Of a stretch of 42,242 nt of DNA, positions 7,846 through 41,325 are shown one piece after another. The DNA lies in the sequence record PX871047.1. One strand, written 5' to 3'. This DNA is from a phage. How positions within the stretch are numbered: position 1 is the stretch's first letter; each line of letters opens with the position of its first letter. Below the pieces are notes generated by a model that worked only from the letters and a program-made list of their open reading frames with translations, was not told the DNA's origin and did not search any database. Made by a program: the position numbers and the translations under genes.

Positions 7846-7870
7846 ACACCCTCCTGTTTAAGTTAACTGA

Positions 7871-7899
7871 ATAGTACCCTATTATATTGGTGTCTGCAA
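7871..7899 (-). promoter_or_regulatory. promoter with embedded AATAG-N4-CTATT dyad (type A)
   Basis: Minus strand reads TTGCAG - 17 nt - TACTAT; dyad at 7870-7883. Confidence 0.55.
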
Positions 7900-7943
7900 A
7901 TATTATTTTTATGCGTTACACTGGCGATACTACAGGAGGGCAT

Positions 7944-8987
7944 ATGAGCTTACTTACATCCCTAATTAGCCACCAGATATGGCTACAACGCACCGCATCC
8001 GGCGAGGTGAAAGACCTTGCGCCGTTCATTCAGGAAATGCGGGACGAAATCAAACGGCAGGTGTTGCTGTTCGGCGACGACGGTCGCAGCACCGCGCGAC
8101 TGAATAAACTGTTACGTGACCTCGAAGAAGCACTGACCGGGCTTACAGGCGACTGGCAAACGAAGCTGACAGAAGACCTAAAGGAACTGGCGGCGTATGA
8201 GGCCGAGTGGAACGTGAAGACACTGACGACTAACGTTAACGCGGAATTTGTTACGCCTACCGCCGAACAGGTGTGGGCCGCTGCCGAGTTTCAGCCCTTA
8301 TCATTAAGTGACAAGCCCGTTGATTTCGCCAAGCTGATGGATGGCTGGGGTGAAACAGAAGTATCGCGACTGGTAACTGGTGTTAAGATGGGTTTCGTTC
8401 AAGGCCAAACCACACGGCAGATTGTTAAAAATGTCGTTGGCGCTGGCGGACTGGCGGACATCTCTGAGCGCAACGCAGCTACGGTAACCCGCACCGCGCT
8501 GTCGCACATATCCAACGAAGCACGCAACGAGACGTACCGTCAGAACGACGACATCATCGAGAAATATGAATGGGTATCGACGCTTGACAGCCGTACCAGT
8601 ACGATTTGCAGAGCCAGGGACGGAATGACGTGGGAAATCGGTAAGGGGCCGATGCCCCCCGCCCATTTTGGCTGCCGAAGCACCACAGCACCTGTAATCA
8701 GTTCAGAATTCGACTTCCTCGATAAAGACGCAAAACGTGCAGCTAAGGGTGCGGACGGCGGAACTCAGGTAAGCGTGGACACCTCTTACTACGAGTTCCT
8801 AAAACAACAACCGGCATGGTTTCAGGATGAAGCACTCGGTCCTGTTCGCGGTAAGATTTTCCGCAACAGCGGTATATCGCCGGAAGAGTTTCGCGTAATA
8901 TCTGTAGATGGTTTCGGGAATCCGCTTACGCTTAAGCAGATGGCGGAACTCGATAAACGTGTTGCTGATTATCTGAAAGGGGAATAA
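7944..8987 (+). CDS. head morphogenesis protein (putative)
   Basis: Position after portal; ATG 7944 after AGGAGG (track ORF begins 7887 inside the promoter motif). Confidence 0.5.
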   Translation: MSLLTSLISHQIWLQRTASGEVKDLAPFIQEMRDEIKRQVLLFGDDGRSTARLNKLLRDLEEALTGLTGDWQTKLTEDLKELAAYEAEWNVKTLTTNVNAEFVTPTAEQVWAAAEFQPLSLSDKPVDFAKLMDGWGETEVSRLVTGVKMGFVQGQTTRQIVKNVVGAGGLADISERNAATVTRTALSHISNEARNETYRQNDDIIEKYEWVSTLDSRTSTICRARDGMTWEIGKGPMPPAHFGCRSTTAPVISSEFDFLDKDAKRAAKGADGGTQVSVDTSYYEFLKQQPAWFQDEALGPVRGKIFRNSGISPEEFRVISVDGFGNPLTLKQMAELDKRVADYLKGE

Positions 8988-9448
8988 TGATGGGCTTTTT
9001 CAAAGTAACTGACGTACCTTCGCGTCGCGTTGTCCAGTTTGCTCGCGTGTCTGGCTCCGGTGAGAACGTGGTGTCTATTGGGGACGAAAGTGTACTAGGT
9101 ACGCCAGTAGATGATATGCCGTTTGCAGATAAGACCGGTATTGCGCTACCCGCCGCGGGGATGCTTTACGAGATTCCGTATCTGGCTGACGCCGGCGACG
9201 TGTATTTCTCTGTGCAACCGCAGGACACGGAACTGGCAGACGGCAGCGCAACTATCACTGTCGAAGTTAAGGCGGGCAAAGCACCGTATGCGCTGACCTG
9301 GTACAAAGACGGGAAGGAAGTGGTAAATGCCCCTGAAGAGGCCTTGTCTCTGACAGTTAATGCGGTCGGCGAATACTTCGTTAAAGTTACTGATGCCGAT
9401 GGTGTGGAGGCTGTTAGTAAAGCGGCGAAGGTCATTAAGCCAGAATAA
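8987..9448 (+). CDS. Ig-like domain virion protein
   Basis: C-terminal APYALTWYKDGKEV...GEYFVKVTD, Ig-like pattern shared with the 12660 protein. Confidence 0.45.
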   Translation: MMGFFKVTDVPSRRVVQFARVSGSGENVVSIGDESVLGTPVDDMPFADKTGIALPAAGMLYEIPYLADAGDVYFSVQPQDTELADGSATITVEVKAGKAPYALTWYKDGKEVVNAPEEALSLTVNAVGEYFVKVTDADGVEAVSKAAKVIKPE

Positions 9449-9452
9449 ACTG

Positions 9453-9477
9453 AAGCCCCGTTAAGGGGCTTTATTTC
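9453..9477. terminator. bidirectional intrinsic terminator
   Basis: AAGCCCC / GGGGCTT stem followed by TATTTCC. Confidence 0.6.
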
Positions 9478-9486
9478 CATCAGAGT

Positions 9487-9582
9487 TCACCATTCCCCTC
9501 TATCTGCATCCTCAACCCCGCTAATAGCCCACACAAACAATCCTAAATTAACCAGTAACACAAATGAAATTGCTATCATCAT
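9487..9582 (-). CDS. small hydrophobic peptide (31 aa)
   Basis: GGAGGT before ATG; MMIAISFVLLVNLGLFVWAISG; own promoter 9609-9637. Confidence 0.4.
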   Translation of the reverse strand: MMIAISFVLLVNLGLFVWAISGVEDADRGEW

Positions 9583-9608
9583 AACCACCTCCACTAGGCA
9601 TTTACTGA

Positions 9609-9637
9609 ATAGTACGCTATTATGTTGGGGTGTGCAA
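9609..9637 (-). promoter_or_regulatory. promoter with embedded AATAG-N4-CTATT dyad (type A)
   Basis: Minus strand reads TTGCAC - 17 nt - TACTAT; dyad 9608-9621. Confidence 0.55.
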
Positions 9638-9689
9638 ACTATTTGTTTACGTATTCCAGTTATTCCGCTCAATTGTAAATGTTGGAATA

Positions 9690-9705
9690 AACTATTCGAA
9701 TAGTT
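9690..9705. repeat. perfect 16-bp palindrome AACTATTCGAATAGTT
   Basis: Self-complementary; same half-site (GAATAGT) as the promoter dyads but in inverted arrangement; abuts -35 of promoter 9704-9732. Confidence 0.6.
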
Positions 9706-9732
9706 GACTTTTCACTAAAAATATGATAAGCT
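9704..9732 (+). promoter_or_regulatory. promoter of ORF-less element, copy 1
   Basis: TTGACT - 17 nt - TAAGCT with TGn extended -10; same arrangement at 40955-40983. Confidence 0.45.
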
Positions 9733-9738
9733 CCACCT

Positions 9739-9940
9739 GAGCTTGTGAAGTATGAACAAGCGACCGCGGCGCGGGCAGGTAACGGAGCGGGACGTAAGTC
9801 CTGAGTGTAGTTACGCTGACGCGTTCGGAAGGGCCGTACCCTATTGCTTGTGTAAAAAGTAACTGGTTTACTGAGATTACGCCGTTTCTATGTTTAAATG
9901 ATAAGGACTAGCGCCCCGCTTTATGGCGGGGCTTTACTTA
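9739..9940 (+). ncRNA. candidate ORF-less structured transcript (putative sRNA or leader), copy 1
   Basis: No conserved ORF; 5' hairpin GCTTGT/ACAAGC (9741-9761); conserved block 9802-9835; terminal hairpin GCCCCGC/GCGGGGC (9913-9932) followed by TTTACTT; paralog at 40990-41234. Confidence 0.35.
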
Positions 9941-9956
9941 TCGAGAAAGGAGAAAC

Positions 9957-10343
9957 ATGAATCTTAAAGCAACTGTCGTAGCGGGGGCATGTTTCATCAT
10001 CCTGGCTTACGCACACGGCATCTACCAGTACCGCAGCGGCTGGAACGAAGGCCGGGCTAATCTAGCTTCACAGCAACAGCGGAAAGCACAGACCGAGTTA
10101 GCGAAGAAAACACAACGGCAGCAGCAGGACGAATCGAAGGCCGCGGCCGCTGACAACGAAGGCAAGACGAAATCAGAGGTAATTACCCGTGAAGTCGTTA
10201 AGTACATTAAAACGCCTGGCCGCAGCGTGTGCACTTTCGACGATGCTCGCGTCCTGCTCAAGTCCCGCGCCGTCACCAACGCCAATTCCATCCCCGGATA
10301 CGACAATGATGCAGCCGCCGTGCAAGCTGGCACCGCCAAGTAG
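9957..10343 (+). CDS. i-spanin (Rz-like)
   Basis: N-terminal TM segment then Gln/Lys/Glu-rich region; contains out-of-frame lipoprotein ORF. Confidence 0.6.
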   Translation: MNLKATVVAGACFIILAYAHGIYQYRSGWNEGRANLASQQQRKAQTELAKKTQRQQQDESKAAAADNEGKTKSEVITREVVKYIKTPGRSVCTFDDARVLLKSRAVTNANSIPGYDNDAAAVQAGTAK

Positions 10344-16695: not shown

Positions 16696-16700
16696 AACTA

Positions 16701-16723
16701 AGGCCCCGAAAGGGGCCTTTTTC
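16701..16723. terminator. bidirectional intrinsic terminator
   Basis: AGGCCCC / GGGGCCT stem, GAAA loop, TTTTCT; near-identical to terminator at 29235. Confidence 0.7.
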
Positions 16724-19112: not shown

Positions 19113-19304
19113 TTACTTCTCGTTAACATTCGAGTTGCAAGCCCAGATTAAAATAAAGACCCACGGCAGCAGAGCCCAGCCAAGAAACAGGTTAGCCATG
19201 AATATTGCCAACTTCGCTTTATGGCCACGCATATGGGCTACTAAAAACGGGATAAAATAAACTAAAACGATAATGATTAAGAAGAACATAGTAATGCCAG
19301 TCAT
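19113..19304 (-). CDS. superinfection-immunity-like small membrane protein
   Basis: Two TM segments with RGH...NLFLGWALLPW pattern; AGGAGC RBS; first gene after promoter 19346-19374. Confidence 0.5.
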   Translation of the reverse strand: MTGITMFFLIIIVLVYFIPFLVAHMRGHKAKLAIFMANLFLGWALLPWVFILIWACNSNVNEK

Positions 19305-19345
19305 GGTGTAGCTCCTGTTTGAGTTAACATTGTTGGTGTAAGTGA

Positions 19346-19374
19346 ATAGTATCCTATTATGTTGGGGTGTGCAA
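19346..19374 (-). promoter_or_regulatory. promoter with embedded AATAG-N4-CTATT dyad (type A)
   Basis: Minus strand TTGCAC - 17 nt - TACTAT; 33-bp block 19342-19374 identical to reverse complement of 41273-41305. Confidence 0.6.
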
Positions 19375-22595: not shown

Positions 22596-23978
22596 ATGAG
22601 TGATTTGAGATTCCCTATGTCCCTTCGACCAATAGTGTCGAAGGGGTACTCCCAAACGCGAGGGAGTAATATCTGGCGTACAGAAGTGCAAGGCGGCGTT
22701 CCGCGTCAGGGCCGAGACACATACTTCGAACCGGTGCCGATTAGCGTTACCCTGGTTGTGTCGTCACTAGGCCGCCAGGCTTTCTATAGCTTTCTGAATA
22801 ACATAGACGGCGGGGCGTCTTCGTTCATCATGCCTCACGATACCGGTTTAGGTATCGAAGACCACCAGGTTCTTATTACGTCTGATATTAGCGATAGCAC
22901 TGACGATGGTAAGAACTGGGTGATTACGTTCACTGCTACGGCAGAGAGAACAGCGATTCAGGAAGATACATGCTTTACGAAGAATCTGCCAGATTTGTTC
23001 GGTTGCTACGGCGATTATTTAGGTAGTTTTCTGAAAATATACGCGAACTATGAGACTACGTTCCCGCGCATCTGGAGCGATGAAGGGCCCGCAGGATACC
23101 CGCCGATTAACCTTCTGGCGTCCGCCCTGGATAGCCGCATTGTGTACGACGGGCCGCAGGTTTATTACATCAACCGAAACGGCAATCTTGTGCAGTCCGC
23201 GGCTAATGAATGGCCTCTTACGTTTATTGATGGTGTCGCTGTCGGGCGTGTGCCGCCAGAAGGTGCCTCGCGCAATTTGTACATAAATTCGGAAACATGG
23301 GCAACTGGACTCCAAACATCTGTGCGGAATAATGCCGAAGTATCACCTCGCGGCGATATAACTATGGCGGAAGTCACTGCGACAACTTCAAACTCTGAGC
23401 ATTTCGCTAACGACAGGGCAATAGGGGTGCAGCAAGATGAGCTGTATTCATATTCAATATTTGTAAAAGCCGCTAGCGACCCACTAAACCTTTACCTAAG
23501 GGTGACAGCGGGCACCGTAGCGAGCACAATGTTCAACCCTGTTACTGGCGCATTTGTCGCGAACTTAGGAGTTAATTTTGTATCAAAAAATGCCGTTAGG
23601 GTTTCCGAGGACACATATAGGGTAACAATGGTCTTCCGGGCTGGCGCAACTAGAAACTCTGTTATCCGTGTGCAGCTTGCATCTAGTGTGTCCCCAATAT
23701 TCGCGGGTACTGGGGGAAATGGCATTTATGTATGGGGGGCGCAGTTAGAGAAATCGGCAAATACTACCAGTTACATACAGACATCAGCTATTGCAGGAGA
23801 TAGAGTATCGGCATCGGCAAAAGTAGTAATGAGCGGCGCAACGAGCATTGATATTACCTATTCCGATGGTTCTGTGGTAAACGTTCCGTCTGTTAACGGC
23901 TACGCCACCATTCCGCAGGCCGATTCTGCGTGGGGGAGTAAATATATCACTCGCATTGATTTTAACGTGGACGGTTAA
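22596..23978 (+). CDS. distal/minor tail protein
   Basis: First gene after tape measure. Confidence 0.45.
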   Translation: MSDLRFPMSLRPIVSKGYSQTRGSNIWRTEVQGGVPRQGRDTYFEPVPISVTLVVSSLGRQAFYSFLNNIDGGASSFIMPHDTGLGIEDHQVLITSDISDSTDDGKNWVITFTATAERTAIQEDTCFTKNLPDLFGCYGDYLGSFLKIYANYETTFPRIWSDEGPAGYPPINLLASALDSRIVYDGPQVYYINRNGNLVQSAANEWPLTFIDGVAVGRVPPEGASRNLYINSETWATGLQTSVRNNAEVSPRGDITMAEVTATTSNSEHFANDRAIGVQQDELYSYSIFVKAASDPLNLYLRVTAGTVASTMFNPVTGAFVANLGVNFVSKNAVRVSEDTYRVTMVFRAGATRNSVIRVQLASSVSPIFAGTGGNGIYVWGAQLEKSANTTSYIQTSAIAGDRVSASAKVVMSGATSIDITYSDGSVVNVPSVNGYATIPQADSAWGSKYITRIDFNVDG

Positions 23979-29229: not shown

Positions 29230-29234
29230 AACTA

Positions 29235-29260
29235 AGGCCCCGTCTGGGGCCTTTTTTTTT
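29235..29260. terminator. bidirectional intrinsic terminator
   Basis: AGGCCCC / GGGGCCT stem followed by eight T; A-rich upstream. Confidence 0.8.
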
Positions 29261-29398: not shown

Positions 29399-29580
29399 TT
29401 CTTACCTTCGCTTTTCTTGAAACTGCGCTTTATATCCGGCGGAGTGTAGCATCGTGAATTTTCGTACTTACCGTCCGAGCTTACCAAAACAAAGCTGTTG
29501 CCGTCTTTTGATATGTACTCGATGGTGAAAGTATTGAATGAATGTACGCTGTATATTTCGTCTCCAACATTAAGTTTCAT
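29395..29580 (-). CDS. hypothetical protein
   Basis: Track ORF, coupled to helicase gene. Confidence 0.45.
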   Translation of the reverse strand: MKLNVGDEIYSVHSFNTFTIEYISKDGNSFVLVSSDGKYENSRCYTPPDIKRSFKKSEGKK

Positions 29581-31007
29581 TTCTTACTCCTACGTTTCAT
29601 GTAATTAAGCAGCTCTTCCTGTACAGATTTCTTCTCATCTGTACGCGCGGCAACAACCTCGTCCAGCGTGTCTTTAGCAACGATGTGATAGAGAAACACC
29701 GGGCGCTCGTGGCCTGCCTGTTTCTGGCGGACCGGGCCTATACGCTCGACAACCTGCAAATAGTGCTCAAGGTTCCAGCCTTGCGAGATGAACGCCAGAT
29801 GATGTCCGCCATCCTGTAAATTCAAACCATGCCCGGCTGACGCAGGGTGTACGCATAAGATTTCTATTTCGCCGCGGTTCCACGCTTCCATCTGCTTATT
29901 ACCCTTAGCACCTTTGGCAAACGCCTGTGCTTGCGGGAATCGTTTAAGGATGCGCTCCAGTTCGTGCTTGAACTGATAGGCTACCAGTAGCGGCGCGCCC
30001 TGTAACTCCTCAACAATTGACTCCAGCGCATCCAGTTTCGTGTCGTGCACTTTCTCCCAGTCTTTTGTCGCTTCTCCGTCTGGTCCCGACACATATACGG
30101 CACCGGATGCAATCTGCAAACACTTCGACGTCTTCGCTGCCGCGTTAGCTGCCTCAACTTCTCCGCTCTCCAGTTCCGCAAATAACTTCTCCTCCATATC
30201 TATGTACGCCTGACGCGCTTTCTTCGGCAGGTCGATTTCAACAGGTACGATAACCGGCGCTTCGCATCCGAACCACTCAGCGGCGTCAATCGTGAGACTG
30301 ATGTCCTTCATCTTCTGGTGGATTTCAGTATCCGCACCCGGGCGGGCGTGGTACTCACGTGCCATAGCCGATTTGCCTTTTTGCACCGAGTTAAACCAGC
30401 GGTCGGTGAATGCCGTGTACGATGAACCAAGTCGCTCGCCTGCGTCGATAAACCAGTTCTGCCCCCACAGGTCTTTGAGGCCGTTTGGCGACGGCGTACC
30501 TGTCAGGTTAATGAACCGCTTAACCTTGCCGAACGCCACTTTGCTGAGTGCCTTCGCGCGCTTGCTGCCGCCAGAACGGCTACGGAAAGATTTAAGTTTC
30601 GTGCTTTCATCGGCAACGATAACCGTAAAAGGCCAGTCGTCTTTGCCGTAGTAGTCAATCAGCCACTCGATAACTTCGTAGTTCGTACACACTACGTTAG
30701 CATCCGACTCCAGCGCCGCGATGCGGCGCTTCTCTGAACCAGTCGCATCGACGACACGCAGACAAGGGAAGTTCCAACGTGCCTGTTCCGCGGGCCACGT
30801 ACCTGACGCAACACGTAAAGGGGCAAGAATTAACACTCGGTCGTCGTCATTAAGTTGCCCATTACGGAACAGTCGATTGAGAACCCACAACGTTGACCCC
30901 GACTTGCCGCTGCCCATCGAAGCCCAAATATTACAGCGAGGGTGCCGCAGCATGAACGAAGTCATGAGCTTTTGGTACTCTCGACGGATAAATTTAGACA
31001 TAATCAA
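29577..31007 (-). CDS. SNF2/DEAD-like superfamily 2 helicase
   Basis: Walker A MGSGKSGST, motif II VADEST, C-terminal helicase-C-like region. Confidence 0.7.
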   Translation of the reverse strand: MIMSKFIRREYQKLMTSFMLRHPRCNIWASMGSGKSGSTLWVLNRLFRNGQLNDDDRVLILAPLRVASGTWPAEQARWNFPCLRVVDATGSEKRRIAALESDANVVCTNYEVIEWLIDYYGKDDWPFTVIVADESTKLKSFRSRSGGSKRAKALSKVAFGKVKRFINLTGTPSPNGLKDLWGQNWFIDAGERLGSSYTAFTDRWFNSVQKGKSAMAREYHARPGADTEIHQKMKDISLTIDAAEWFGCEAPVIVPVEIDLPKKARQAYIDMEEKLFAELESGEVEAANAAAKTSKCLQIASGAVYVSGPDGEATKDWEKVHDTKLDALESIVEELQGAPLLVAYQFKHELERILKRFPQAQAFAKGAKGNKQMEAWNRGEIEILCVHPASAGHGLNLQDGGHHLAFISQGWNLEHYLQVVERIGPVRQKQAGHERPVFLYHIVAKDTLDEVVAARTDEKKSVQEELLNYMKRRSKK

Positions 31008-31493: not shown

Positions 31494-31808
31494 TTATAAT
31501 TCCTTATATTGTTGAGGTATGTGCTTACTATAATAGTCTGCTATTAGGGTGTCAATCTGTTTTATCGAACCAACGACAAAAACATTCGCGCCACGTTTAC
31601 GCATCCGCTCGTGCTCGCGTAACTGGTGTGGGTCTGGCTTCGTGCTTTCATCTTTCTTAACCTCAACGAACCAGATGATGCCGCCGGGGAGGATTACCAA
31701 CAGGTCGGGCGCTCCGTTTCGGCCCTCATACACTATCTTACGAACGAGGCCCCCCAGGGCCTCGAATCGGTCTTTCGCGTATTTCTGTACGCGGCCCTCT
31801 TTAGTCAT
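31494..31808 (-). CDS. VRR-NUC domain nuclease
   Basis: GAPDLLVILPGG..WFVEVK...QL pattern typical of VRR-NUC; ATG 31808 coupled to upstream micro-ORF (track ORF begins at TTG 31823). Confidence 0.6.
   Translation of the reverse strand: MTKEGRVQKYAKDRFEALGGLVRKIVYEGRNGAPDLLVILPGGIIWFVEVKKDESTKPDPHQLREHERMRKRGANVFVVGSIKQIDTLIADYYSKHIPQQYKEL
31527..31555 (-). promoter_or_regulatory. promoter with embedded AATAG-N4-CTATT dyad (type B)
   Basis: Minus strand TTGACA - 17 nt - TATAGT; dyad 31532-31545. Confidence 0.6.
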
Positions 31809-32043: not shown

Positions 32044-32171
32044 TCCAGCACCCACAGATAAATTGCGATGAACATACCTAATACGGCTACAATCATGCCG
32101 TATTGGCCCTCGTGACAGTAGACACCGGCGGCAAATCCCGCCAGTACTGTGATAATCAGTTTACTTAGCAT
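32040..32171 (-). CDS. small membrane protein (43 aa)
   Basis: Start overlaps 3' end of polymerase gene; hydrophobic; ATGA-coupled downstream. Confidence 0.35.
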   Translation of the reverse strand: MLSKLIITVLAGFAAGVYCHEGQYGMIVAVLGMFIAIYLWVLE

Positions 32172-34434
32172 AACGGTACACCTCTCCCCCAGCCCATGTT
32201 AACGGGAACCCTTCGGCCCACTCAGGTAATGAGCATAGCAGGTCACCCATCTCTTTAACCGTGTACTCTGGCGTGTCTGGCGTTTCGGCAACACATTCGT
32301 CATGTACGTGGAGTACAATTGGGTAGCCCGCCGCCTCGACCGTCAGGAGTCCGTTAACCAGTAAATCACGGCACAACGCCTGGATGATGTTTTCACACAA
32401 TTTTCCGCCGTGTGTGTACAAAGTTGTCCACTGGCGGGTGGTCTGATTTTCGCCCTGGTATTTAATGCGAACGTTAGTTGTTACACGCCCGTCCTCGTCG
32501 GTCTCTTTAGTGACGCTTAAGCCTATGCCAGGGTAGGACATGATGCGCCCCGACGGCAGCTCCACGCACAACCACCAACCTGGCACAAAGTTACCTTGTC
32601 TGTCTTTCTCCTTAGTACGCCAGATGCGAATAGCTCTGTCGCCGTTGGGGCGGACTCTGGCCCCCGCCCAAAACTCTCGTCCCGGATTTCTAATTGCAGC
32701 AATCACCGAATCCTTAAGGTCGTTCCAGAATTTCACTGTTTCCGGATGGGCCTCACGCCACATGCGCTTGATAGCATCGCAAGTGCGCCAGACTTCTTTA
32801 GGCAGCACATAAGAGGCCCGTTCATCCTTTTTACCGGGTTTTGGGGGCCGCTTAGCCTCCTGAATCCGCGCCCATTCATAGCCTCGGGCAGTGGCGGCCC
32901 ATATATGGTCAGGGAATGTTCCCCGCATTGTCTCCGTCATTTTAAAGAGGTCCAGCCCGTAAGTTTTAGCCATAGTCATGAAGGCCCCCACGCCCCCCTC
33001 GTAGCCGAGGCCGAGCTCGCAACATTTCCCGACCTGTCGCAGGTCTTTACGGGTGGCTTTCAGTTCTATGGGGTCCATACCAAACATCTTGCCCGCAGTG
33101 GCGCAATAAATATCAATCCCCGCGCGGAACGTCTCAAGCGCGGATGTCTCCCCCGCGGTCCAGGCCAACCCGCGCCCTTCTACGTTTGAGTAGTCGGCAA
33201 CGAGCAACTTATTACCCTTTTCAGGGATGATGCAACTGCGAACAGTCGAGGCTGTCAGCTTGGATACGTCGAAACGACGGTGCGCCCGACCCTTTAGCAG
33301 CAGATTGATGCCGAACGATAGGGGGTTGAGACGACGGTTCCAGTCTTCGTCGGACTCCCACGGCTGGCGCACAAGTTTCTTTTCCTCGTTAGTCGGGTCG
33401 TCGTGGTAGTACCCGCGCGACAGGTTCTGCGGTTGGAACCCTTTACCCGCAAATCGTAAAGTGCGCTTTGCCCCACCGTACTGGATGCAACCGCGGCGGC
33501 GGCCGTCTTTGGACCGTCCTAGCAGGAGCGGTTTGTATTTTGTCGACGCCGTGGAGGCCGCGCCGAGGCGCATCTCAATGATTGTGCGCGCATCGTCAGG
33601 TAAGTCGTCGTCCTCTAGCAAACCTTCGAGCGTTGCTTTCTGTGCATTATAGATATTGTAGGCCGGTGCCAGCTCCCGAAGGATTGGCAGGAAGTCTTTA
33701 CCCGTTAGCTTCCCGCCAAATTTAGCCCTGGCCTCGTTTTTTAGCTCTTGCTTGTGGCGTTCAACTGCTGCTACCGCCGCCTCAGCAAGAGCCGCATCAA
33801 CAAAGAAGCCTCGGTCGTTGATTAACTGGTCAAGTTCAAGTACACGGTCCTCGAAATCGGAGTTACCCCAACGTGGCAGCTTATGGAAGACTTCACGCAT
33901 CGCTGTGATGTCGCTCACGGCATACTTGATGAACAGGGCCCACTCGTCAGGGTGAGTTTCTGCGGTGTAGCGGCGGATTTTGTAGTTCTTCGGCGTCGGT
34001 TTAGAGAAACGCTTAATCAGCGCCTTGCCGCGTTTATCTTTTGCATTGTCGGCGGATACGCCCAGCACTTCGCACAATGCGTCAAGTGACCCCGGCAGCG
34101 CGTGACGAAACGCCCAAATCATCGTATCAATGGTGTTGCTTACCGGAATATCAAAGTCCCAGCAGTGCTTCATGACGAGCCTGTCGAACATTGAGCCGTT
34201 GTGCCACACCATCTTAATACGACTGTTTGGCTTAACCAGGCGGCGCAAGGCGCGATGCAAATCCCCCGGCATGTCGCTGCCGTCAGTGCAGTCCCATACC
34301 TGAACAGGCTCGTCATCAAAAGCATAGGTGCAGATGAGCACTTCGGTAGTCGGGTGTTCGGCGTAAGCATAGGAGCCGACTTTCTTCAAATCGGCTTCGG
34401 AGAAGGTTTCAAAGTCTAAGAACAGATAACTCAT
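32161..34434 (-). CDS. DNA polymerase, family A, with 3'-5' exonuclease domain
   Basis: Exo motif LFLDFETFS; pol motifs DYSNVEGR, K...LGLGYEGG, VHDECV. Confidence 0.85.
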   Translation of the reverse strand: MSYLFLDFETFSEADLKKVGSYAYAEHPTTEVLICTYAFDDEPVQVWDCTDGSDMPGDLHRALRRLVKPNSRIKMVWHNGSMFDRLVMKHCWDFDIPVSNTIDTMIWAFRHALPGSLDALCEVLGVSADNAKDKRGKALIKRFSKPTPKNYKIRRYTAETHPDEWALFIKYAVSDITAMREVFHKLPRWGNSDFEDRVLELDQLINDRGFFVDAALAEAAVAAVERHKQELKNEARAKFGGKLTGKDFLPILRELAPAYNIYNAQKATLEGLLEDDDLPDDARTIIEMRLGAASTASTKYKPLLLGRSKDGRRRGCIQYGGAKRTLRFAGKGFQPQNLSRGYYHDDPTNEEKKLVRQPWESDEDWNRRLNPLSFGINLLLKGRAHRRFDVSKLTASTVRSCIIPEKGNKLLVADYSNVEGRGLAWTAGETSALETFRAGIDIYCATAGKMFGMDPIELKATRKDLRQVGKCCELGLGYEGGVGAFMTMAKTYGLDLFKMTETMRGTFPDHIWAATARGYEWARIQEAKRPPKPGKKDERASYVLPKEVWRTCDAIKRMWREAHPETVKFWNDLKDSVIAAIRNPGREFWAGARVRPNGDRAIRIWRTKEKDRQGNFVPGWWLCVELPSGRIMSYPGIGLSVTKETDEDGRVTTNVRIKYQGENQTTRQWTTLYTHGGKLCENIIQALCRDLLVNGLLTVEAAGYPIVLHVHDECVAETPDTPEYTVKEMGDLLCSLPEWAEGFPLTWAGGEVYRYAK

Positions 34435-34453: not shown

Positions 34454-34473
34454 AAGGCCCAATAAAGGGCCTT
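34454..34473 (-). terminator. stem-loop, probable partial terminator
   Basis: AAGGCCC / GGGCCTT stem followed on minus strand by TTTTACT; polymerase gene lies just downstream. Confidence 0.45.
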
Positions 34474-34492
34474 AATTAAACAGATTCAGATA

Positions 34493-35125
34493 TTAACCAC
34501 GGCGACGACGTTCGCGGCGCGGTGCTTCATCTTCTTCGTCGTCTTCCAGGTCGTCGGTGCTCGCTACTACACTGGAGCCGCCGAAGCGTTTACCTTCGCC
34601 CATATACTTGATGCCGAGGATGGTAGCGCACAGGTTTTTCCAATCTTTGTGCCACCATAATTCTACAGATACGTTTGCGATACATCCGCTATATACCTGC
34701 TCGCCTTCTATTTCTTTCCCGTCGATGTTGAAATCAGGCTCGGTTTGTTTTTCACCTTTAGCCGATGTCATAATCACCGGTTGGCGGTTGTTTGTAGCGC
34801 GGAAATACAGACCTTCTTCAAAATCCTCAATCGGATTATCTCGCATTGCCAGGTCACGTACACAGCACTTGTCCGCGTGGTGGTCTACGCCGTAGTTGGC
34901 CTTCATCCATTTTTCAGCCGCAGCGGTCCCGATCGCCTCTGTTACAACTTCCAGTGCGGTGTCGTAAAGCGCGTCGATTTGAGGGTGGTCAGGCTGCATA
35001 AGAACCGTAACCTGGTATTTGCCTTTAATCAGTTTACCGGTTTTCTTGTCCTCAGAGTCGGCAGCACGTTCAAATACGTTAACCCATGCAGTGTTTACTC
35101 TACGCAGATTCAGTTTAATACCCAT
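34493..35125 (-). CDS. putative ssDNA-binding / recombination-associated protein
   Basis: Genomic context between PD-(D/E)XK nuclease and polymerase; acidic C-terminal tract; own consensus promoter. Confidence 0.4.
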   Translation of the reverse strand: MGIKLNLRRVNTAWVNVFERAADSEDKKTGKLIKGKYQVTVLMQPDHPQIDALYDTALEVVTEAIGTAAAEKWMKANYGVDHHADKCCVRDLAMRDNPIEDFEEGLYFRATNNRQPVIMTSAKGEKQTEPDFNIDGKEIEGEQVYSGCIANVSVELWWHKDWKNLCATILGIKYMGEGKRFGGSSVVASTDDLEDDEEDEAPRRERRRRG

Positions 35126-35183
35126 CGTGATTTCTCGCTTTTAAGTTTCGTTTACTCCGGGAACTGCCCGGCCAGTGATTAGA

Positions 35184-35212
35184 AATATAATAGCTAACTA
35201 TTCAGGTGTCAA
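35184..35212 (-). promoter_or_regulatory. promoter with embedded AATAG-N4-CTATT dyad (type B)
   Basis: Minus strand TTGACA - 17 nt - TATATT; dyad 35189-35202. Confidence 0.6.
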
Positions 35213-35445
35213 CCCTTCCAGCCAGTTATTTTCTCAACTATCAGTACGTATTCGAAAGGCCACTCCAAATTCTGTACCCATTTAATTTCCTTTGTCGAGT
35301 CCAGTTGCTCGGGGTCTACCGTTTCATACTTAATCGCAACGTAGACCGTGAGTGGGAGAAGGATAATTAGAAGCGGCACTAACATTGCCCAGTAACAAAC
35401 AAATGCCACAAACCCACCAAAAACCCTGAACGTTTTACGAATCAT
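35209..35445 (-). CDS. small membrane protein
   Basis: ATG 35445 overlapping nuclease stop (ATGA); GAGGAGGA RBS; two hydrophobic segments; track ORF begins 35475. Confidence 0.45.
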   Translation of the reverse strand: MIRKTFRVFGGFVAFVCYWAMLVPLLIILLPLTVYVAIKYETVDPEQLDSTKEIKWVQNLEWPFEYVLIVEKITGWKG

Positions 35446-36692
35446 TCCAAATCCTCCTCTGTTACCTGATTCCACTCAGGCCGTTTGTCGTCTGCCGTTG
35501 TGACACATGGCGCGCCTGGCTTACGGGTAATAAACGGCTCAAGCGCGGCCATCTCATCCGCCGAAAGAACTTTTGCTGCCTCCGTAGGGGACATCAATAC
35601 CTCTTTTTTGAGAATGTCGCCGTGTGACACTTCAATCGCATCGGCATCTTTCCACGCACGATTACCTGGGCGGCCTTCAACGAGTTTGTACCCCGGCACT
35701 TTCTTACCAGAATACAAAGCGGCGGCCATAGCTTTCTCAACCTTGTCGATGTGCTGGCGCAACAACGGCAACTTCTCATACTCAGCTACGAGTTGCTCAG
35801 GCGTAAGTTCCAGTGCAAAGTCGTCCTCCAGTTCTTCCGCCAGCACCGCGTTAACCGTCTTTGTACGCGCGGCGCACTGTTCAGAGAACCGGCACCACTG
35901 GCAACCATCGACCGACGGCTTGAAGTCCGACGCTTTAAGGTTCTTCTTGCCGCGGAAATAGGCATCAAGAGCTAACAGCGCGCGTTTGCGTGCGAACTTA
36001 GCGAACAGTTCCAGACCTTCAACCGAGATGTCCCACTCCGACGCACCCCCAGCGTACGGCTGGAAGATGACCAGACGAACAACTGTGATGTTATATCGTC
36101 TCTTGAGGCGGCGATAAACACCGAGAGCGTATAGCATAAGCTGTTTGTTTTCTTTCGCTTCGACACGATGCCGTCCGGTTTTCAGGTCACCAATAATGAG
36201 CATGTGCGCGTCGGTGTTCGCCAGTTCCTGAACAGCAACAAGGTCGGCGGTTCCGAACGTCTCAACGCCTTCATACCCAGGATGCAACACCTCAGTGAGA
36301 TTTACGCGCATTTCTAGCTTGGCGTAAGTCGCTACATCGATAATCGCTTTGCAGTAGTCGGTGTGCTTGCGCACCTGCTCAATCATGTCGGCCGTAATCA
36401 GTACCGCGCCTTTCATAGGGCTGATTAGAGCCTTAATCTGGCCTTTACCCTCGTCCAGCACGTAAGCACCTACTTCACGCTCTAACGGCAACGCAGTGCC
36501 TTTGATGTACTGGTTTAGATGGACCTCTGCTATAGTGTGGCACGCGGTTCCCGTAACGGCGGATTTACCAGATGTATTAGGAATATCTTTTTCACAGGCC
36601 AGTGATGCGGCACAACTCAGCCACTTTTTAGCCCCAGACGGCGACAGCAGGGCGTGCACATCGTTATTGCCGCCGCGTTCCTTTAAAATCAT
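35442..36692 (-). CDS. PD-(D/E)XK nuclease, Cas4/RecB-like with Cys cluster
   Basis: GDLKTG and QLMLYAL motifs; N-terminal Cys plus C-terminal CQWCRFSEQC; ATG 36692 coupled to upstream gene (track ORF begins 36752). Confidence 0.65.
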   Translation of the reverse strand: MILKERGGNNDVHALLSPSGAKKWLSCAASLACEKDIPNTSGKSAVTGTACHTIAEVHLNQYIKGTALPLEREVGAYVLDEGKGQIKALISPMKGAVLITADMIEQVRKHTDYCKAIIDVATYAKLEMRVNLTEVLHPGYEGVETFGTADLVAVQELANTDAHMLIIGDLKTGRHRVEAKENKQLMLYALGVYRRLKRRYNITVVRLVIFQPYAGGASEWDISVEGLELFAKFARKRALLALDAYFRGKKNLKASDFKPSVDGCQWCRFSEQCAARTKTVNAVLAEELEDDFALELTPEQLVAEYEKLPLLRQHIDKVEKAMAAALYSGKKVPGYKLVEGRPGNRAWKDADAIEVSHGDILKKEVLMSPTEAAKVLSADEMAALEPFITRKPGAPCVTTADDKRPEWNQVTEEDLE

Positions 36693-36961
36693 GCTCTGTT
36701 CTCCCACTGGTCGATTAAATGTCGTGTCTTGTGGCCGCAATGTAAGGCCCATCCATACATCGACTCGAAGACATAAAAGTCAGGTTTGGCGAATGTCGTG
36801 CGCTTAATCTGCGACACGTGACGGCCTATATCTTCAGGGCGCGGTACTTTGCCTAAGTACGCCATCTCTTCCATCTGGTGTGCACCGGACGGCGCACGCA
36901 ACAGCCATAGCGCCTCTGTGTTATCCCGCCTGTCCACGGCGCGGTAGAGTTGGTAAATCAT
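36689..36961 (-). CDS. hypothetical protein
   Basis: Track ORF. Confidence 0.45.
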   Translation of the reverse strand: MIYQLYRAVDRRDNTEALWLLRAPSGAHQMEEMAYLGKVPRPEDIGRHVSQIKRTTFAKPDFYVFESMYGWALHCGHKTRHLIDQWENRA

Positions 36962-37200
36962 TCGGCGTCCCTCGCTTCCAGCATTGCATCAGCCATGATG
37001 TACGCCTTTTGCGCTACTTGCGCGGTGTTCCCTGCAGCTACAGGGTGAACTGCATCCGCTGGGTAACTAGCAAGCCACCCTTGAAGGGCTTTAGCCGCGA
37101 AATAATCGCGTAATGTCATGCCATCTTCCGTAGTCCAATCTGAGTTGAAGCCCACGTTACCCAACATAGGGAAAGCCTGTCCGCCTGTATTTTTACGCAT
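36958..37200 (-). CDS. hypothetical protein
   Basis: Track ORF. Confidence 0.45.
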   Translation of the reverse strand: MRKNTGGQAFPMLGNVGFNSDWTTEDGMTLRDYFAAKALQGWLASYPADAVHPVAAGNTAQVAQKAYIMADAMLEARDAE

Positions 37201-37739: not shown

Positions 37740-37768
37740 ACTATAATAGCGAACTATTCACTTGTCAA
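37740..37768 (-). promoter_or_regulatory. promoter with embedded AATAG-N4-CTATT dyad (type B)
   Basis: Minus strand TTGACA - 17 nt - TATAGT; dyad 37745-37758. Confidence 0.65.
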
Positions 37769-37832
37769 TGGGCTTTTCTAAAATAATTAATATGGTACTA
37801 TTCACATATCAACTAACTAAGGAGTAATTGAC

Positions 37833-38048
37833 ATGCAACCATCTGAACTAGGCATCCGTGTAGAACAGCGCCGTAAAGAACTCGGTATCTCTCAGCGCCG
37901 TCTGGCGGTCCTGACCGGGGTTTCCCAGGGCGCAATTAACCAGCTTGCGCTCGGTGTAACTCAGGACGTCCGCCCGGCGACGCTGTTTAAACTGGCGGAA
38001 GTGCTGCAAGTAGACGCCAAGTGGCTGGCGTTCGGTGAAGGGGCTTAA
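37833..38048 (+). CDS. Cro/XRE-like helix-turn-helix transcriptional regulator
   Basis: LGISQRRLAVLTGVSQGAINQL HTH pattern; AAGGAG RBS; only plus-strand gene in the replication block. Confidence 0.65.
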   Translation: MQPSELGIRVEQRRKELGISQRRLAVLTGVSQGAINQLALGVTQDVRPATLFKLAEVLQVDAKWLAFGEGA

Positions 38049-38064
38049 CGCCCCTTTCTTTTTA
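38038..38064. terminator. bidirectional intrinsic terminator
   Basis: AAGGGGC / GCCCCTT stem followed by TCTTTTT. Confidence 0.6.
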
Positions 38065-38065
38065 C

Positions 38066-40333: not shown

Positions 40334-40391
40334 GTGTATATTCCTTCAGCAAGTAATTTAGCCTCGGCGTTCACCGCGTCGGGGCTTTCTT

Positions 40392-40682
40392 TTAACGTTT
40401 AGCCAGACATTCCATTAAATGTGAATATTTTCTGTAATAGCAAGGAACTAAATCACACCCAAAATAATGATAAACATAAGCCAAGTGGTCAGTAACATCT
40501 ATAGCGGCTGACATTGTGCTAAGACGGCGAAGGCTAATCAACTGTAATTCTTCCGTAATGCAAAATGGTTCATACGTATCAAGTTTGCAAGAAACGTTAA
40601 AACACAGAGCATAGCCGTCTTGTGCGGAGTAGACCAGAAATGCGCTGTCGTTCTCTTTATCGTGAAAAATTACACCTTTCAT
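40392..40682 (-). CDS. hypothetical protein
   Basis: Track ORF; AAGGAGA RBS; AT-rich. Confidence 0.45.
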   Translation of the reverse strand: MKGVIFHDKENDSAFLVYSAQDGYALCFNVSCKLDTYEPFCITEELQLISLRRLSTMSAAIDVTDHLAYVYHYFGCDLVPCYYRKYSHLMECLAKR

Positions 40683-40849
40683 TTCACATTCTCCTTAACC
40701 CACGCTTCTACTTTATTTCGGTCAAACGTACCCGGCATACGGCGGCCCATTACTTTAACGCTGCAATCAGGAAACTTCCCGCTTTTAATCCAGTTATTTA
40801 TTGTCTGACGAGTAACTCCGATTAATTCTGCAACCTCGTTTATAGTCAT
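40679..40849 (-). CDS. AlpA/excisionase-family HTH regulator (putative)
   Basis: MTINEVAELIGVTRQTINNWIKSGKFP; AGGAGA RBS; ATG 40849 (track ORF begins 40939). Confidence 0.55.
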   Translation of the reverse strand: MTINEVAELIGVTRQTINNWIKSGKFPDCSVKVMGRRMPGTFDRNKVEAWVKENVK

Positions 40850-40878
40850 TTCACGATCTCCTGTGTAAGATGTAGTGA

Positions 40879-40907
40879 AGTATAAAGCGGTAACTTTGTA
40901 AAAGCAA
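40879..40907 (-). promoter_or_regulatory. promoter of replication operon
   Basis: Minus strand TTGCTT - 17 nt - TATACT. Confidence 0.5.
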
Positions 40908-40954
40908 CCAAAACAACACACAAAGCCACTAAGATACAAAAGATGCTACTGGGA

Positions 40955-40983
40955 TTGACTTTTACTTAAAAATGTGCTAAGCT
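40955..40983 (+). promoter_or_regulatory. promoter of ORF-less element, copy 2
   Basis: TTGACT - 17 nt - TAAGCT with TGn; paralog of 9704-9732. Confidence 0.45.
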
Positions 40984-40989
40984 TCACTG

Positions 40990-41234
40990 AGCTTGTGAGA
41001 TATCGCAAGCGACCGCGGAGCGGCAGGGAACGCAACGCGTGCCATTAGGCACTTGAGTGTAGTTCCGCTGGCGCTTTCGGAAGGGCCAAAGTCTATTGTT
41101 AATCCCGCCTAAATACCCAAGTCACTGATAATTAAAGTTTCTATAGTTGCCGTAAGCGAGGTAGAGAGTACTTCACTCCGCTGTGGTGGGCTAACGCCCA
41201 CCCACTGCGTTGCGTACTCTTTTAAGAAACGAAA
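40990..41234 (+). ncRNA. candidate ORF-less structured transcript (putative sRNA), copy 2
   Basis: No ATG-initiated ORF; 5' hairpin GCTTGT/GCAAGC (40991-41010); conserved block 41064-41097; nested terminal hairpins AGAGTAC...GGTGGGC/GCCCACC...GTACTCT then TTT. Confidence 0.35.
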
Positions 41235-41272
41235 GAATCACAACGGCAACGTAACTATTCTCTTGCACACCC

Positions 41273-41301
41273 CAACATAATAGGATACTATTCACTTATC
41301 G
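41273..41301 (+). promoter_or_regulatory. early promoter with embedded AATAG-N4-CTATT dyad (type A)
   Basis: TTGCAC - 17 nt - TACTAT; dyad 41289-41302. Confidence 0.6.
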
Positions 41302-41325
41302 AAACGAGACAGAGGAGTGAGGGTT

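Follow-up and report, generated by a model that had tools for sequence, protein, structure and literature searches.

The genome of this phage, a virulent Escherichia coli siphovirus of the genus Kagunavirus (Guernseyvirinae), carries the same short inverted repeat, AATAG-N4-CTATT, at promoters scattered along its length, which raises the question of what the repeat is for and which protein reads it. The window, meaning the whole stretch of 42,242 nucleotides in record PX871047.1, contains seven exact copies against 0.02 expected, a count reached in none of 100 shuffles, and the repeat is the commonest of the 5-N-5 palindromes of the genome. The copies start at 7870, 9608, 19345, 31532, 35189, 37745 and 41279. 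All seven are intergenic, and each lies on a sigma-70-type promoter with a 17-nt spacing and a downstream ribosome binding site and start codon; the promoters are predicted from their hexamers rather than mapped. The first-pass annotation had the count and six of the positions right, while the seventh dyad occupies 41279-41292 and not 41289-41302.

The promoters fall into two architectures, whose hexamers were confirmed as first described. Type A has TTGCAC/G-17-TACTAT, with the -10 hexamer entirely within the dyad. Measured against a common 33-mer, the four copies are identical at 28, 30, 33 and 33 positions, the lowest value being one below the range of 29 to 33 first given. The two identical 33-mers, in opposite orientation, are real, although the partner of the copy at 19342-19374 (minus strand) is found at 41263-41295 (plus strand) instead of 41273-41305.

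41263..41295, plus strand: type A promoter with putative operator; -35 TTGCAC at 41263-41268, dyad at 41279-41292, -10 TACTAT at 41286-41291.
19342..19374, minus strand: type A promoter with putative operator; dyad at 19345-19358, -10 at 19346-19351, -35 at 19369-19374.
9605..9637, minus strand: type A promoter with putative operator; dyad at 9608-9621, 30 of 33 positions identical.
7867..7899, minus strand: type A promoter with putative operator; dyad at 7870-7883, 28 of 33 positions identical, -35 TTGCAG.

The first of these leads into a rightward operon of small genes, with the first ATG at 41326. The second serves a superinfection-immunity gene (19113-19304, Pfam match Imm_superinfect), a metallophosphoesterase gene and two more ORFs. 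The third precedes an ORF for a 31-aa hydrophobic peptide (ATG 9582), followed by a terminator at 9453-9471, and the fourth an 81-aa ORF (7600-7845), followed by a bidirectional terminator at 7576-7595.

Type B has TTGACA-17-TATAGT or TATATT, with 11 of 12 hexamer positions matching the sigma-70 consensus. Here the dyad fills the spacer and only its last T overlaps the -10 hexamer, so the view that the dyad overlaps the -10 in both types is true only in a loose sense. The only elements common to the three type B promoters are the -35, the -10 and the two half-sites.

37740..37768, minus strand: type B promoter TTGACA-17-TATAGT; dyad at 37745-37758 in the spacer, termed O1.
35184..35212, minus strand: type B promoter TTGACA-17-TATATT; dyad at 35189-35202.
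31527..31555, minus strand: type B promoter TTGACA-17-TATAGT; dyad at 31532-31545.

The promoter with O1 serves an operon running from a 154-aa ORF through a DUF2800/PD-(D/E)XK nuclease gene, and is divergent from a gene for an HTH_3 protein. The second serves the genes for a ssDNA-binding protein (34493-35125) and DNA polymerase A (32161-34434), and the third a series from an 84-aa ORF through a SNF2-type helicase (29577-31007). A bidirectional -10, read as TATAAT on the opposite strand of type B, was considered and rejected, as that strand offers no usable -35 at 31532 and 35189. A role as an RNA hairpin was likewise rejected, since the start site expected for type A comes after the dyad and the stem would have just 5 bp; no tRNA or tmRNA was found in the window, and a search of the whole window against Rfam at the gathering threshold gave no credible match.

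Three further dyads differ from the exact form by one mismatch.

37789..37802, plus strand: imperfect dyad AATATGGTACTATT, termed O2, over the -10 TACTAT (37796-37801) of a weak promoter of the HTH_3 gene.
2191-2204, plus strand: one-mismatch dyad ACTAGTTGACTATT (class C) in a promoter at 2191..2224; it encloses the -35 TTGACT (2196-2201), with the -10 TATATT at 2219-2224.
9699-9712, plus strand: one-mismatch dyad AATAGTTGACTTTT in an element at 9690..9712; it encloses the -35 TTGACT (9704-9709).

O2 is a putative autoregulatory site of the HTH_3 gene and lies 44 bp from O1 in the window. Among 44 loci anchored on flanking sequence, O2 has exactly one mismatch in all 42 from Kagunavirus (window included) and two in both from Jerseyvirus; O1 and O2 are 43-45 bp apart in Kagunavirus and, at 55 bp, roughly a helical turn further apart in Jerseyvirus. 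The promoter at 2191 lies 3' of a terminator and leads towards the packaging and structural genes. All 14 bp of its dyad are invariant in 28 unique Kagunavirus sequences, the sites having been picked by motif; in the Jerseyvirus counterpart the mismatch falls in the other half, and the Cornellvirus orthologue reads TAATAGTTGCATAATA. The dyad at 9699 belongs to the promoter of an element resembling a non-coding RNA (no credible Rfam match in 9690-9960 at E up to 10), overlaps a 16-bp everted palindrome, AACTATTCGAATAGTT (9690-9705), and is kept in K1G and in Jerseyvirus. Isolated half-sites are another matter. ACTATTC occurs 11 times against 4.1 expected, and because eight of the 11 copies fall within dyads the isolated motif is not enriched; lone copies were accordingly rejected as additional operators. 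Of the two extra half-sites proposed earlier, that at 37797-37803 exists as part of O2, and the other, at 41254-41260 and not 41263-41270, is not significant.

The position of the dyad relative to the hexamers is the first indication of its nature. It begins 4 nt after the -35 in type B, 10-11 nt after it in type A and 7 nt after it at the Jerseyvirus site L003:15715, and encloses the -35 at 2191 and 9699, so that at least four registers are occupied, in either orientation. An RNA polymerase recognition element would keep one register. A flip of orientation between types A and B, as first proposed, is a weaker point: the core palindrome is perfect, orientation can thus be defined only by flanking bases, and in type B the -10 fixes some of these.

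The second indication is conservation. Orthologous promoters were chosen by flanking homology alone, not by motif, and those of the two largest sets retain the exact dyad at 41 of 44 loci (O1, with one mismatch in the remaining three) and at 35 of 37 (35184..35212) while N4 varies. The dyad is exact in 7/8 anchored loci for 31527..31555, and is present at 10/11 loci anchored on the gene downstream of 41263..41295. Across 68 unique sites the half-sites are invariant and N4 comes in many versions. Among Kagunaviruses the intergenic regions are well conserved throughout, so a column-by-column comparison within the genus does not discriminate. The Jerseyviruses of Salmonella, with about 74% nucleotide identity in the replication-gene region, keep TAATAG-N4-CTATTA at five promoters.

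In the Cornellvirus-clade phages TS6 and VSiP no AATAG-N4-CTATT was found. These carry TATTA-N6-TAATA at the moron, rightward and -35-embedded promoters, the correspondence being by gene order, with just three exact sites per genome. Judged from the sequences, the swap is a concerted change across sites. Jerseyvirus and Cornellvirus phages both infect Salmonella and their dyads differ, which points to a phage-encoded factor. Varying register, conservation across genera and the different dyad of the sister clade together support the earlier proposal of a symmetric operator used by one regulator at dispersed promoters, and argue for the dyad as a distinct element, apparently bound by a protein of the phage.

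The candidate favoured for that protein, one of those listed in the first-pass annotation, is Cro-like.

37833..38048, plus strand: candidate regulator, a 71-aa HTH_3 (Cro/CI-type) protein, in a self-contained cassette.

The gene is followed by a terminator-like hairpin (38037-38057), and its divergent neighbour encodes a 154-aa protein, phrog_3127, of no known function. The product matches Pfam HTH_3 at 1.1e-12, above the gathering score. Its best PDB sequence match is 434 Cro (E 1.9e-6, residues 6-68), and the AF2 model, five helices with pLDDT 81, has 2cro (434 Cro) as top Foldseek match (TM 0.73/0.79). Identity among 37 viral contigs is 96-100% in 36 and 78% in one. Orthologues occur in all three clades, at 49% identity in Jerseyvirus and 39-41% in the Cornellvirus clade, so that the protein diverges in parallel across the clades. 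Sequence and model agree on a five-helix HTH_3 DNA-binding domain, the site is a 14-bp palindrome, within the range of about 14-18 bp usual for such operators, whose outer halves are conserved while the centre varies, and the dyads overlap the -35, spacer or -10 of predicted promoters, all as in Cro/CI-type regulation.

The best explanation, which is considered probable though far from assured, is that the dyads are operators of one phage-encoded dimeric regulator, most probably this HTH_3 protein. The outer half-sites, (T/G)AATAG, would be read by one recognition helix each, and the central 4 bp would stay uncontacted, as in the operators of P22 c2 and in those of phage 434, which are 14 bp long. 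With dyads in the spacer beside the -10, on the -10 or on the -35, a bound protein should exclude the host sigma-70 RNA polymerase, and for this reason the HTH_3 protein would repress transcription, limiting or shutting down in concert the three replication operons, the operon of small genes that runs rightward and the three inverse 'moron' cassettes. Its own gene would be autoregulated via O2, a weaker but conserved imperfect site. In this we infer binding, dimerisation, repression and timing alike.

An unlikely alternative, yet the one that survives best, accepts the operators and assigns them to another phage protein: the 56-aa AlpA-like HTH_17 protein (40679-40849) or an unannotated small early protein. 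In that case the Cro-like protein would act on some other target, or on a narrower one. Kagunavirus and Jerseyvirus, with a common dyad, carry HTH_17 proteins of 77% identity, and none occurs in the Cornellvirus clade, whose dyad differs; the HTH_17 gene has a promoter (TTGCTT-17-TATACT) that lacks the dyad, and in an RNA-seq study (PMC12645636) it is the only annotated 'early' gene. The recognition helix of the HTH_3 protein also leaves some room for another binder. The predicted base-contacting residues of helix 3 are Q, S and H in both Jerseyvirus and the Cornellvirus clade, whose dyads differ, and Q, G and Q in Kagunavirus, even though its dyad is common with Jerseyvirus; the co-variation of helix and operator is therefore not clean. 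On the other hand, excisionase/AlpA-type winged-helix proteins of 50-60 aa have no dimerisation domain, and their usual targets are direct or irregular repeats, not a 5-N4-5 palindrome. An analogous dyad system exists in the Cornellvirus clade without HTH_17, and it is the HTH_3 gene that is flanked by two dyads in an autoregulatory layout. The remaining candidate first listed, an HTH-metallophosphoesterase, shows no HTH in Pfam.

It is less likely still that the dyad has no separate function, being part of a duplicated promoter cassette in which the palindrome is a by-product of -10-like sequences (TACTAT, TATAGT and opposite-strand TATAAT). Two type A copies are identical at 33/33 positions and a third at 30/33, which suggests duplication or gene conversion, and the CTATT half-site overlaps or abuts the -10 in types A and B. 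The left AATAG, however, lies in the spacer, where sigma-70 has no base-specific need, and yet is invariant across paralogues, genera and registers. Nothing besides the dyad is common to types A and B, near-dyads also surround -35 hexamers, and the sister clade altered all its sites in concert.

A very improbable reading takes the conserved 20-33 bp as a phage-specific promoter, used by a phage RNA polymerase or by host polymerase redirected by a phage factor. The version with a phage polymerase is the published one: PHIRE analysis of phage fBC-Eco01 gave the consensus tgAATAGTa-ccTATTat-T, seven times, and the authors named the sites phage-RNAP promoters (PMC9825357). The type A copies are also conserved beyond the hexamers and the dyad. 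Against this, the sites coincide with near-consensus sigma-70 promoters and hold no fixed position or orientation relative to them. No RNA polymerase domain was found by Pfam in the large ORFs, whose matches are an AAA_25 helicase-primase, DNA_pol_A, SNF2, a DUF2800 nuclease and a tape measure protein; the tail-module ORFs at 22596-23978, 24775-27402 and 27415-29229 gave no Pfam match, and no such polymerase is annotated in fBC-Eco01 or K1G. The Pfam scan took in the large ORFs and part of the small ones, and a small sigma-like factor, though improbable, may be encoded among the rest. The phage-polymerase version is thus unsupported by any gene in the scanned ORFs or the relatives' annotations, and is already contradicted. 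Equally improbable is a host transcription factor or nucleoid protein, for although the dyad is common to phages of E. coli and Salmonella, hosts with mostly the same regulators, Cornellvirus-clade phages, also on Salmonella, use a different dyad at the corresponding promoters, and to our knowledge no E. coli regulator has an AATAG-N4-CTATT consensus.

The proposed HTH_3 repressor most resembles the Cro and repressor proteins of phage 434. The 71-aa protein is all-helical, with 434 Cro as its best sequence and fold match. As with ACAA-N6-TTGT in phage 434, the operator spans 14 bp, of which the outer half-sites are conserved and the centre, presumably uncontacted, varies; operators overlap core promoters, and divergent promoters with a strong and a weak site lie beside the regulator gene. 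The half-site sequence differs, and the phage, being virulent, lacks a partner CI repressor, an integrase and a lysogeny module. The annotations of the relatives fBC-Eco01 and K1G list neither a second repressor nor an integrase, so a lambdoid cI-cro arrangement is not seen there, and the group is described in papers as lacking lysogeny genes. Whereas phage 434 has two clusters of three operators, at least 7-10 putative operators are here dispersed genome-wide and in several registers, including over the -35.

The operators of P22 c2, with a conserved AAG-N4-CTT core (structures 2r1j/3jxb), share the 5-N4-5 half-site geometry, in which the central 4 bp are not contacted. Sequence and fold matches of the HTH_3 protein include the c2 DNA-binding domain, with a weaker sequence match (E 0.003), and the C-terminal oligomerisation/RecA-cleavage domain of c2 has no counterpart here. 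For P1 C1 and the 'stoperators' of mycobacteriophage L5 gp71, one repressor serves many operators scattered over the genome, accessory genes included, as proposed for the single candidate here. Those sites are asymmetric, 17 bp and 13 bp respectively, and both phages are temperate, with repressors that maintain lysogeny. Stoperators are mostly within transcription units and in one orientation; the seven exact sites here are instead perfect palindromes, intergenic and on promoters. Controller (C) proteins of restriction-modification systems are also small HTH_3 proteins, dimers of about 70-80 aa, and C.AhdI, C.BclI and C.Esp1396I are among the fold matches. Like C-boxes, the dyads lie on or beside the regulator's own promoter, and the strong and weak sites of C-boxes, which give time-delayed control after entry into a new cell, can be likened to the layout here. 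C-boxes are found only at the C/R operon and first activate and then repress; here there are many target promoters and no restriction-modification genes. The PHIRE 'phage promoters' of fBC-Eco01 and VB_EcoS-Golestan are the same motif in the same copy number, seven; those works read it as a phage-RNAP promoter and did not note the palindrome, the variable register or the link to the HTH_3 protein.

The literature found on characterised promoters or repressors in this group consists only of the PHIRE predictions and one low-resolution RNA-seq study, the sole one of a Kagunavirus (PMC12645636). There the genes of dyad promoters (immunity gene, helicase, methylase, DNA polymerase) belong to the latest class and the HTH_3 gene to the middle class. 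These classes fit co-regulation, but not a simple 'early shut-off'; infection was asynchronous, with phage reads of at most 8.9% and sampling to 120 min for a latent period of 30 min. A wider reading, tentative and rather doubtful, is that a single 434-Cro-like protein runs the temporal programme of a strictly virulent subfamily. The position of the operator (-35, spacer or -10) and its quality would set distinct outputs for replication genes, accessory 'moron' cassettes, the structural-gene promoter, the non-coding RNA and the regulator itself. Perfect and conserved one-mismatch sites would encode different affinities, and between genera the regulator and its operators would have evolved together to new specificities (AATAG-N4-CTATT and TATTA-N6-TAATA).

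The motif itself is already published, as the PHIRE phage-RNA-polymerase promoter consensus, and the regulatory circuit is of an ordinary, conceptually known kind; as the mechanism is known, the understanding of phage regulation would not change. The Guernseyvirinae (Kagunavirus and Jerseyvirus) are, however, among the phages most often isolated for therapy and biocontrol of E. coli and Salmonella, and their HTH 'repressor' gene regularly raises the suspicion of a temperate lifestyle. If the proposal is true, the published 'phage-polymerase promoter' annotation would be corrected, and a compact orthogonal set of repressor, operator and promoter, with two natural specificities, would be available for phage engineering. 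For the subfamily itself, the HTH_3 protein would be a regulator of the lytic cycle with a regulon of about ten promoters, which would explain its strong conservation.

The dyad AATAG-N4-CTATT is a genuine regulatory motif, strongly non-random and evolutionarily conserved. Seven exact copies occur in the window against 0.02 expected, a number that shuffled sequences come nowhere near. It is the commonest 5-N-5 palindrome of the genome, the runners-up being terminator stems. With up to one mismatch there are 11 sites against 1.05 expected, and three of the four additional sites are tied to promoters. The exact sites (first position) and these three imperfect sites are as follows.

7870, exact dyad on a type A promoter
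9608, exact dyad on a type A promoter
19345, exact dyad on a type A promoter
31532, exact dyad on a type B promoter
35189, exact dyad on a type B promoter
37745, exact dyad on a type B promoter
41279, exact dyad on a type A promoter
2191-2204, ACTAGTTGACTATT, surrounding the -35 TTGACT of a rightward promoter
9699-9712, AATAGTTGACTTTT, surrounding the -35 of the promoter for a non-coding-RNA-like element
37789-37802, AATATGGTACTATT, over the -10 of the weak HTH_3 gene promoter, at a distance of 44 bp from perfect site 37745

All seven exact dyads are intergenic, on sigma-70-type promoters whose spacers measure 17 nt; a Shine-Dalgarno sequence and start codon come 25-41 nt further on (61 nt for 35189). 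Type A promoters read TTGCAC/G-17-TACTAT, the dyad starting 10 nt past the -35. Of the 33 positions the four copies match at 28, 30, 33 and 33, the identical pair being oppositely oriented. Type B promoters read TTGACA-17-TATAGT or TATATT and are the best three consensus promoter matches within 29-42 kb; here the dyad starts 4 nt past the -35 and fills the spacer. The first-pass annotation had already recorded the seven intergenic sites and the identical 33-mers, and both observations hold. Its seventh dyad start, 41289, is approximately 10 bp too high, its 33-mer at 41273-41305 lies at 41263-41295, and the half-site it placed at 41263-41270 is at 41254-41260. The overlap with the -10 that it described for both types is real for type A, in which the -10 is inside the dyad; the type B dyad shares only its last T with the hexamer. 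Isolated ACTATTC half-sites are not enriched once those in dyads are discounted.

Megablast of two large parts of the window matched hundreds of Guernseyvirinae in GenBank, the closest being Kagunavirus isolates of E. coli (~90-92% identity) and the next Salmonella Jerseyviruses. In the annotated relatives fBC-Eco01 and K1G, a rightward small-gene block is found with lysis, packaging, head and tail genes, the replication genes are leftward, and short leftward cassettes interrupt the structural block. Neither an integrase nor a lysogeny module is reported for this phage group in the genome papers. Pfam matches were obtained for five large ORFs of the window (AAA_25 helicase-primase, family A DNA polymerase, SNF2 helicase, DUF2800/PD-(D/E)XK nuclease and tape measure protein); three other tail-module ORFs gave none, and no RNA polymerase domain was found among the large ORFs scanned.

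Bidirectional, GC-rich terminator hairpins of almost the same sequence, AAGGCCC(C)-loop-(G)GGGCCTT, are present at 7576-7595, 16700-16719, 29234-29253 and 34454-34473. They end the leftward cassettes and sit where the coding strand switches, so that every leftward cassette, with its type A promoter, is a unit complete with promoter, gene and terminator. The type A promoter at 9605-9637 serves only a 31-aa hydrophobic peptide ORF at 9487-9582 (-), MMIAISFVLLVNLGLFVWAISGVEDADRGEW. A mechanically listed ORF, 9487-9672, has its TTG start upstream of this promoter and is probably not the real gene.

The position of the dyad within the promoter is not fixed. Counted from the start of the -35 hexamer, it begins at +10 in type B, at +16 or +17 in type A and at -5 in sites enclosing the -35; at L003:15715 in the Jerseyvirus L003, where the -10 is TATTAT, it begins at +13. 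A polymerase or sigma recognition element would stay put, so the shifting register argues against one. The three type B promoters have the two hexamers and the two half-sites in common, and nothing further. Sigma-70 reads no bases in the spacer, where the left half-site of type B sits.

Orthologous regions were picked by flanking-gene homology alone, because selection on the motif was to be avoided. In this motif search, which the first-pass annotation had suggested, the dyad was exact at 41 of 44 loci orthologous to 37745 (the remaining three had one mismatch), and at 35/37, 7/8 and 10/11 loci for 35189, 31532 and 41279, respectively. Among 68 unique sites the N4 is free to vary, and the half-site consensus extends to (T/G)AATAG(T/C). 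Jerseyviruses, with ~74% identity to the window over the replication-gene region, retain TAATAG-N4-CTATTA at five promoters. Register, paralogues, orthologues and other genera together indicate that the dyad is an element separate from the promoter, which backs the earlier proposal of a symmetric operator. In L003 the orthologue of the window promoter 41263-41295 has decayed (36112, AACAGGATGCTATT, -10 TGCTAT) and no gene lies directly downstream. A perfect dyad is found on a new promoter 140 bp beyond it (36252), an example of site turnover.

As a sequence the motif is not new. The fBC-Eco01 paper (PMC9825357) described seven PHIRE hits, consensus tgAATAGTa-ccTATTat-T, as promoters of a phage-encoded RNA polymerase. 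The GenBank record of that phage annotates them, and the Golestan paper likewise lists seven PHIRE promoters. This interpretation is unsupported, since no polymerase gene was found among the large ORFs scanned and the motif sits on good sigma-70 promoters in several registers. No literature treating the motif as an operator, or characterising the HTH protein, was found.

The imperfect sites are themselves conserved. The 37789 site has exactly one mismatch in 42 of 42 Kagunavirus sequences (the window counted), and all 14 bp of the 2191 site are unchanged across 28 unique sequences; the Jerseyvirus site of this type carries its mismatch in the opposite half. The 2191 promoter has a terminator upstream and packaging genes in the downstream direction. 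At the HTH_3 promoter the perfect and imperfect dyads (37745-37802 in the window, 32685-32753 in L003) lie 43-45 bp from each other throughout the 42 Kagunavirus sequences, again counting the window, and 55 bp in the Jerseyvirus. This difference of about one helical turn hints at phased, possibly cooperative binding with face-of-helix constraints. Some Kagunavirus relatives have an additional exact dyad with a GTTA/TAAC-type N4 (L008:14750, L009:14567, L010:5998, L014:14595, L020:14663), absent in the window. It lies in the rightward small-gene operon right past a gene stop, beside a terminator-like hairpin and without a recognisable -35, and looks like an operator away from any promoter.

Two paralogous non-coding-RNA-like elements, 9704-9935 (+) and 40955-41230 (+), are 77% identical over ~150 nt. 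Each has a strong upstream promoter with an extended -10, TTGACT-17-TGnTAAGCT, and copy 1 is terminated by a hairpin at 9913-9932. Adjoining the -35 of the copy 1 promoter is a perfect 16-bp palindrome, AACTATTCGAATAGTT (9690-9705), composed of two dyad half-sites in everted order and conserved in K1G and L003. Nothing in Rfam matches the elements, nor do they match a tRNA. Four Kagunaviruses have copy 1 at 93-98% identity and L003 has it at 96%; L006, TS6 and VSiP lack it. From six sequences, RNAalifold gave 31 pairs, three with compensatory double changes; an inner hairpin persists while its sequence varies, and the single-sequence z-score is only -1.7. The fBC-Eco01 annotation has a 38-aa ORF at this position.

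TS6 and VSiP, of the Cornellvirus clade with Salmonella hosts, lack both AATAG-N4-CTATT and its one-mismatch versions. The AT-rich palindrome found most often in them is TATTA-N6-TAATA, at three exact copies per genome. Gene order puts these at promoters in equivalent positions: one precedes the leftward cassette lying between the genes for tail tube and tail chaperone, one precedes the leftward cassette close to those for spanin and scaffold, and one stands where the rightward small-gene operon begins. In all three, the -10 TAATAT is made by the half further downstream. One-mismatch versions occur on one more promoter and around -35 hexamers; one of them belongs to the orthologue of the 2191 promoter, which reads TAATA-GTTGCA-TAATA, then 17 nt, then TATAGT. 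Every site class has thus changed in concert between clades, as predicted by altered specificity of a trans-acting factor. Jerseyviruses have their host genus, but not their dyad, in common with the Cornellvirus clade, while the dyad is the same in Kagunavirus (E. coli) and Jerseyvirus (Salmonella). As the dyad follows phage clade and not host genus, the factor should be phage-encoded, and it is very probable that the dyads bind such a factor.

Of two small HTH proteins encoded in this area, the stronger candidate is the 71-aa HTH_3 protein encoded at 37833-38048 (Pfam 1.1e-12). Among solved structures its first sequence match is phage 434 Cro, also 71 aa (E 1.9e-6, nearly full length), followed by 434 repressor and P22 c2. 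When a single-sequence AlphaFold model (pLDDT 81, five helices) was used in a fold search, 434 Cro was once more the first hit (TM 0.73-0.79, 39% identity), with 434 repressor, HipB, P22 c2, R-M controller proteins and SinR as further matches. Operators of 434 span 14 bp, their outer bases conserved and their centre uncontacted; those of P22 c2 also have an uncontacted centre, of 4 bp. The 14-bp 5-N4-5 dyad shares this geometry. The gene makes up a cassette of its own, in which a weak promoter bearing the imperfect dyad is followed by the ORF and a terminator-like hairpin, and it stands back to back with a type B promoter. Homologues exist in about 560 phages of the database. In 36 of 37 viral contigs the protein shows 96-100% identity, and same-position orthologues are 49% (Jerseyvirus) and 39-41% (Cornellvirus clade) identical. 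Databases label it 'transcriptional repressor', 'repressor' or 'DNA-binding protein', nothing more. In VSiP (34477-37128) the helicase-primase gene follows the HTH_3 gene on the same strand, whereas the Kagunavirus pair is convergent, so the genera differ by a rearrangement of the regulatory cassette.

At the helix-3 positions aligned with the base contacts of 434 Cro, Kagunavirus has Q/G/Q, and the two other groups, Jerseyvirus and the Cornellvirus clade, have Q/S/H. These residues do not track the dyad pattern, so what supports assignment to this protein is co-occurrence, geometry and gene layout rather than a clean specificity code; on balance they tip slightly towards it as the dyad-binding factor. 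The first-pass annotation had also listed the Cro-like protein among its candidate regulators. Its AlpA-like candidate, the weaker one, is a 56-aa HTH_17 protein (40679-40849) found in Kagunavirus and Jerseyvirus, with no homologue in the Cornellvirus clade; proteins of this type do not usually read short palindromes. For the metallophosphoesterase that it also listed, Pfam shows no HTH.

Activation by a dyad-bound factor is unlikely, because type B promoters match the consensus at 11 of 12 positions with an optimal spacer and the sites are within the core promoter. Repression is the probable effect. A dimer of the Cro-like protein on each dyad would occlude sigma-70 polymerase, repressing three replication operons (those of the nuclease, of the ssDNA-binding protein with DNA polymerase, and of the SNF2 helicase), the rightward small-gene operon and three leftward cassettes (81-aa ORF; 31-aa hydrophobic peptide; superinfection-immunity, phosphoesterase, kinase and ATPase genes). 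Weaker action would be expected on the HTH_3 protein's own promoter, the promoter at 2196 and that of the RNA-like element. No dyad is present on the promoter that serves the AlpA-like/helicase-primase operon (TTGCTT 40907-40902, 17 nt, TATACT 40884-40879).

Kagunavirus RNA-seq (PMC12645636), its gene numbers matched to the window through coordinates and gene sizes, places the AlpA-like gene in the early class and the HTH_3 gene in the middle class. The genes named in the latest class (immunity gene, helicase, methylase and DNA polymerase) are all behind dyad promoters, which fits co-regulation of these promoters as a class. These classes are given little weight, since infection was asynchronous (latent period 30 min, samples to 120 min) and the 'late' class may stem from second-round infections.

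The best explanation is that the dispersed dyads are operators of one regulon, controlled by a 434-Cro-like repressor, in a virulent phage. The concept itself is unsurprising, being a well-known kind of system, and the regulon would be useful in annotating and engineering these therapeutic phages.
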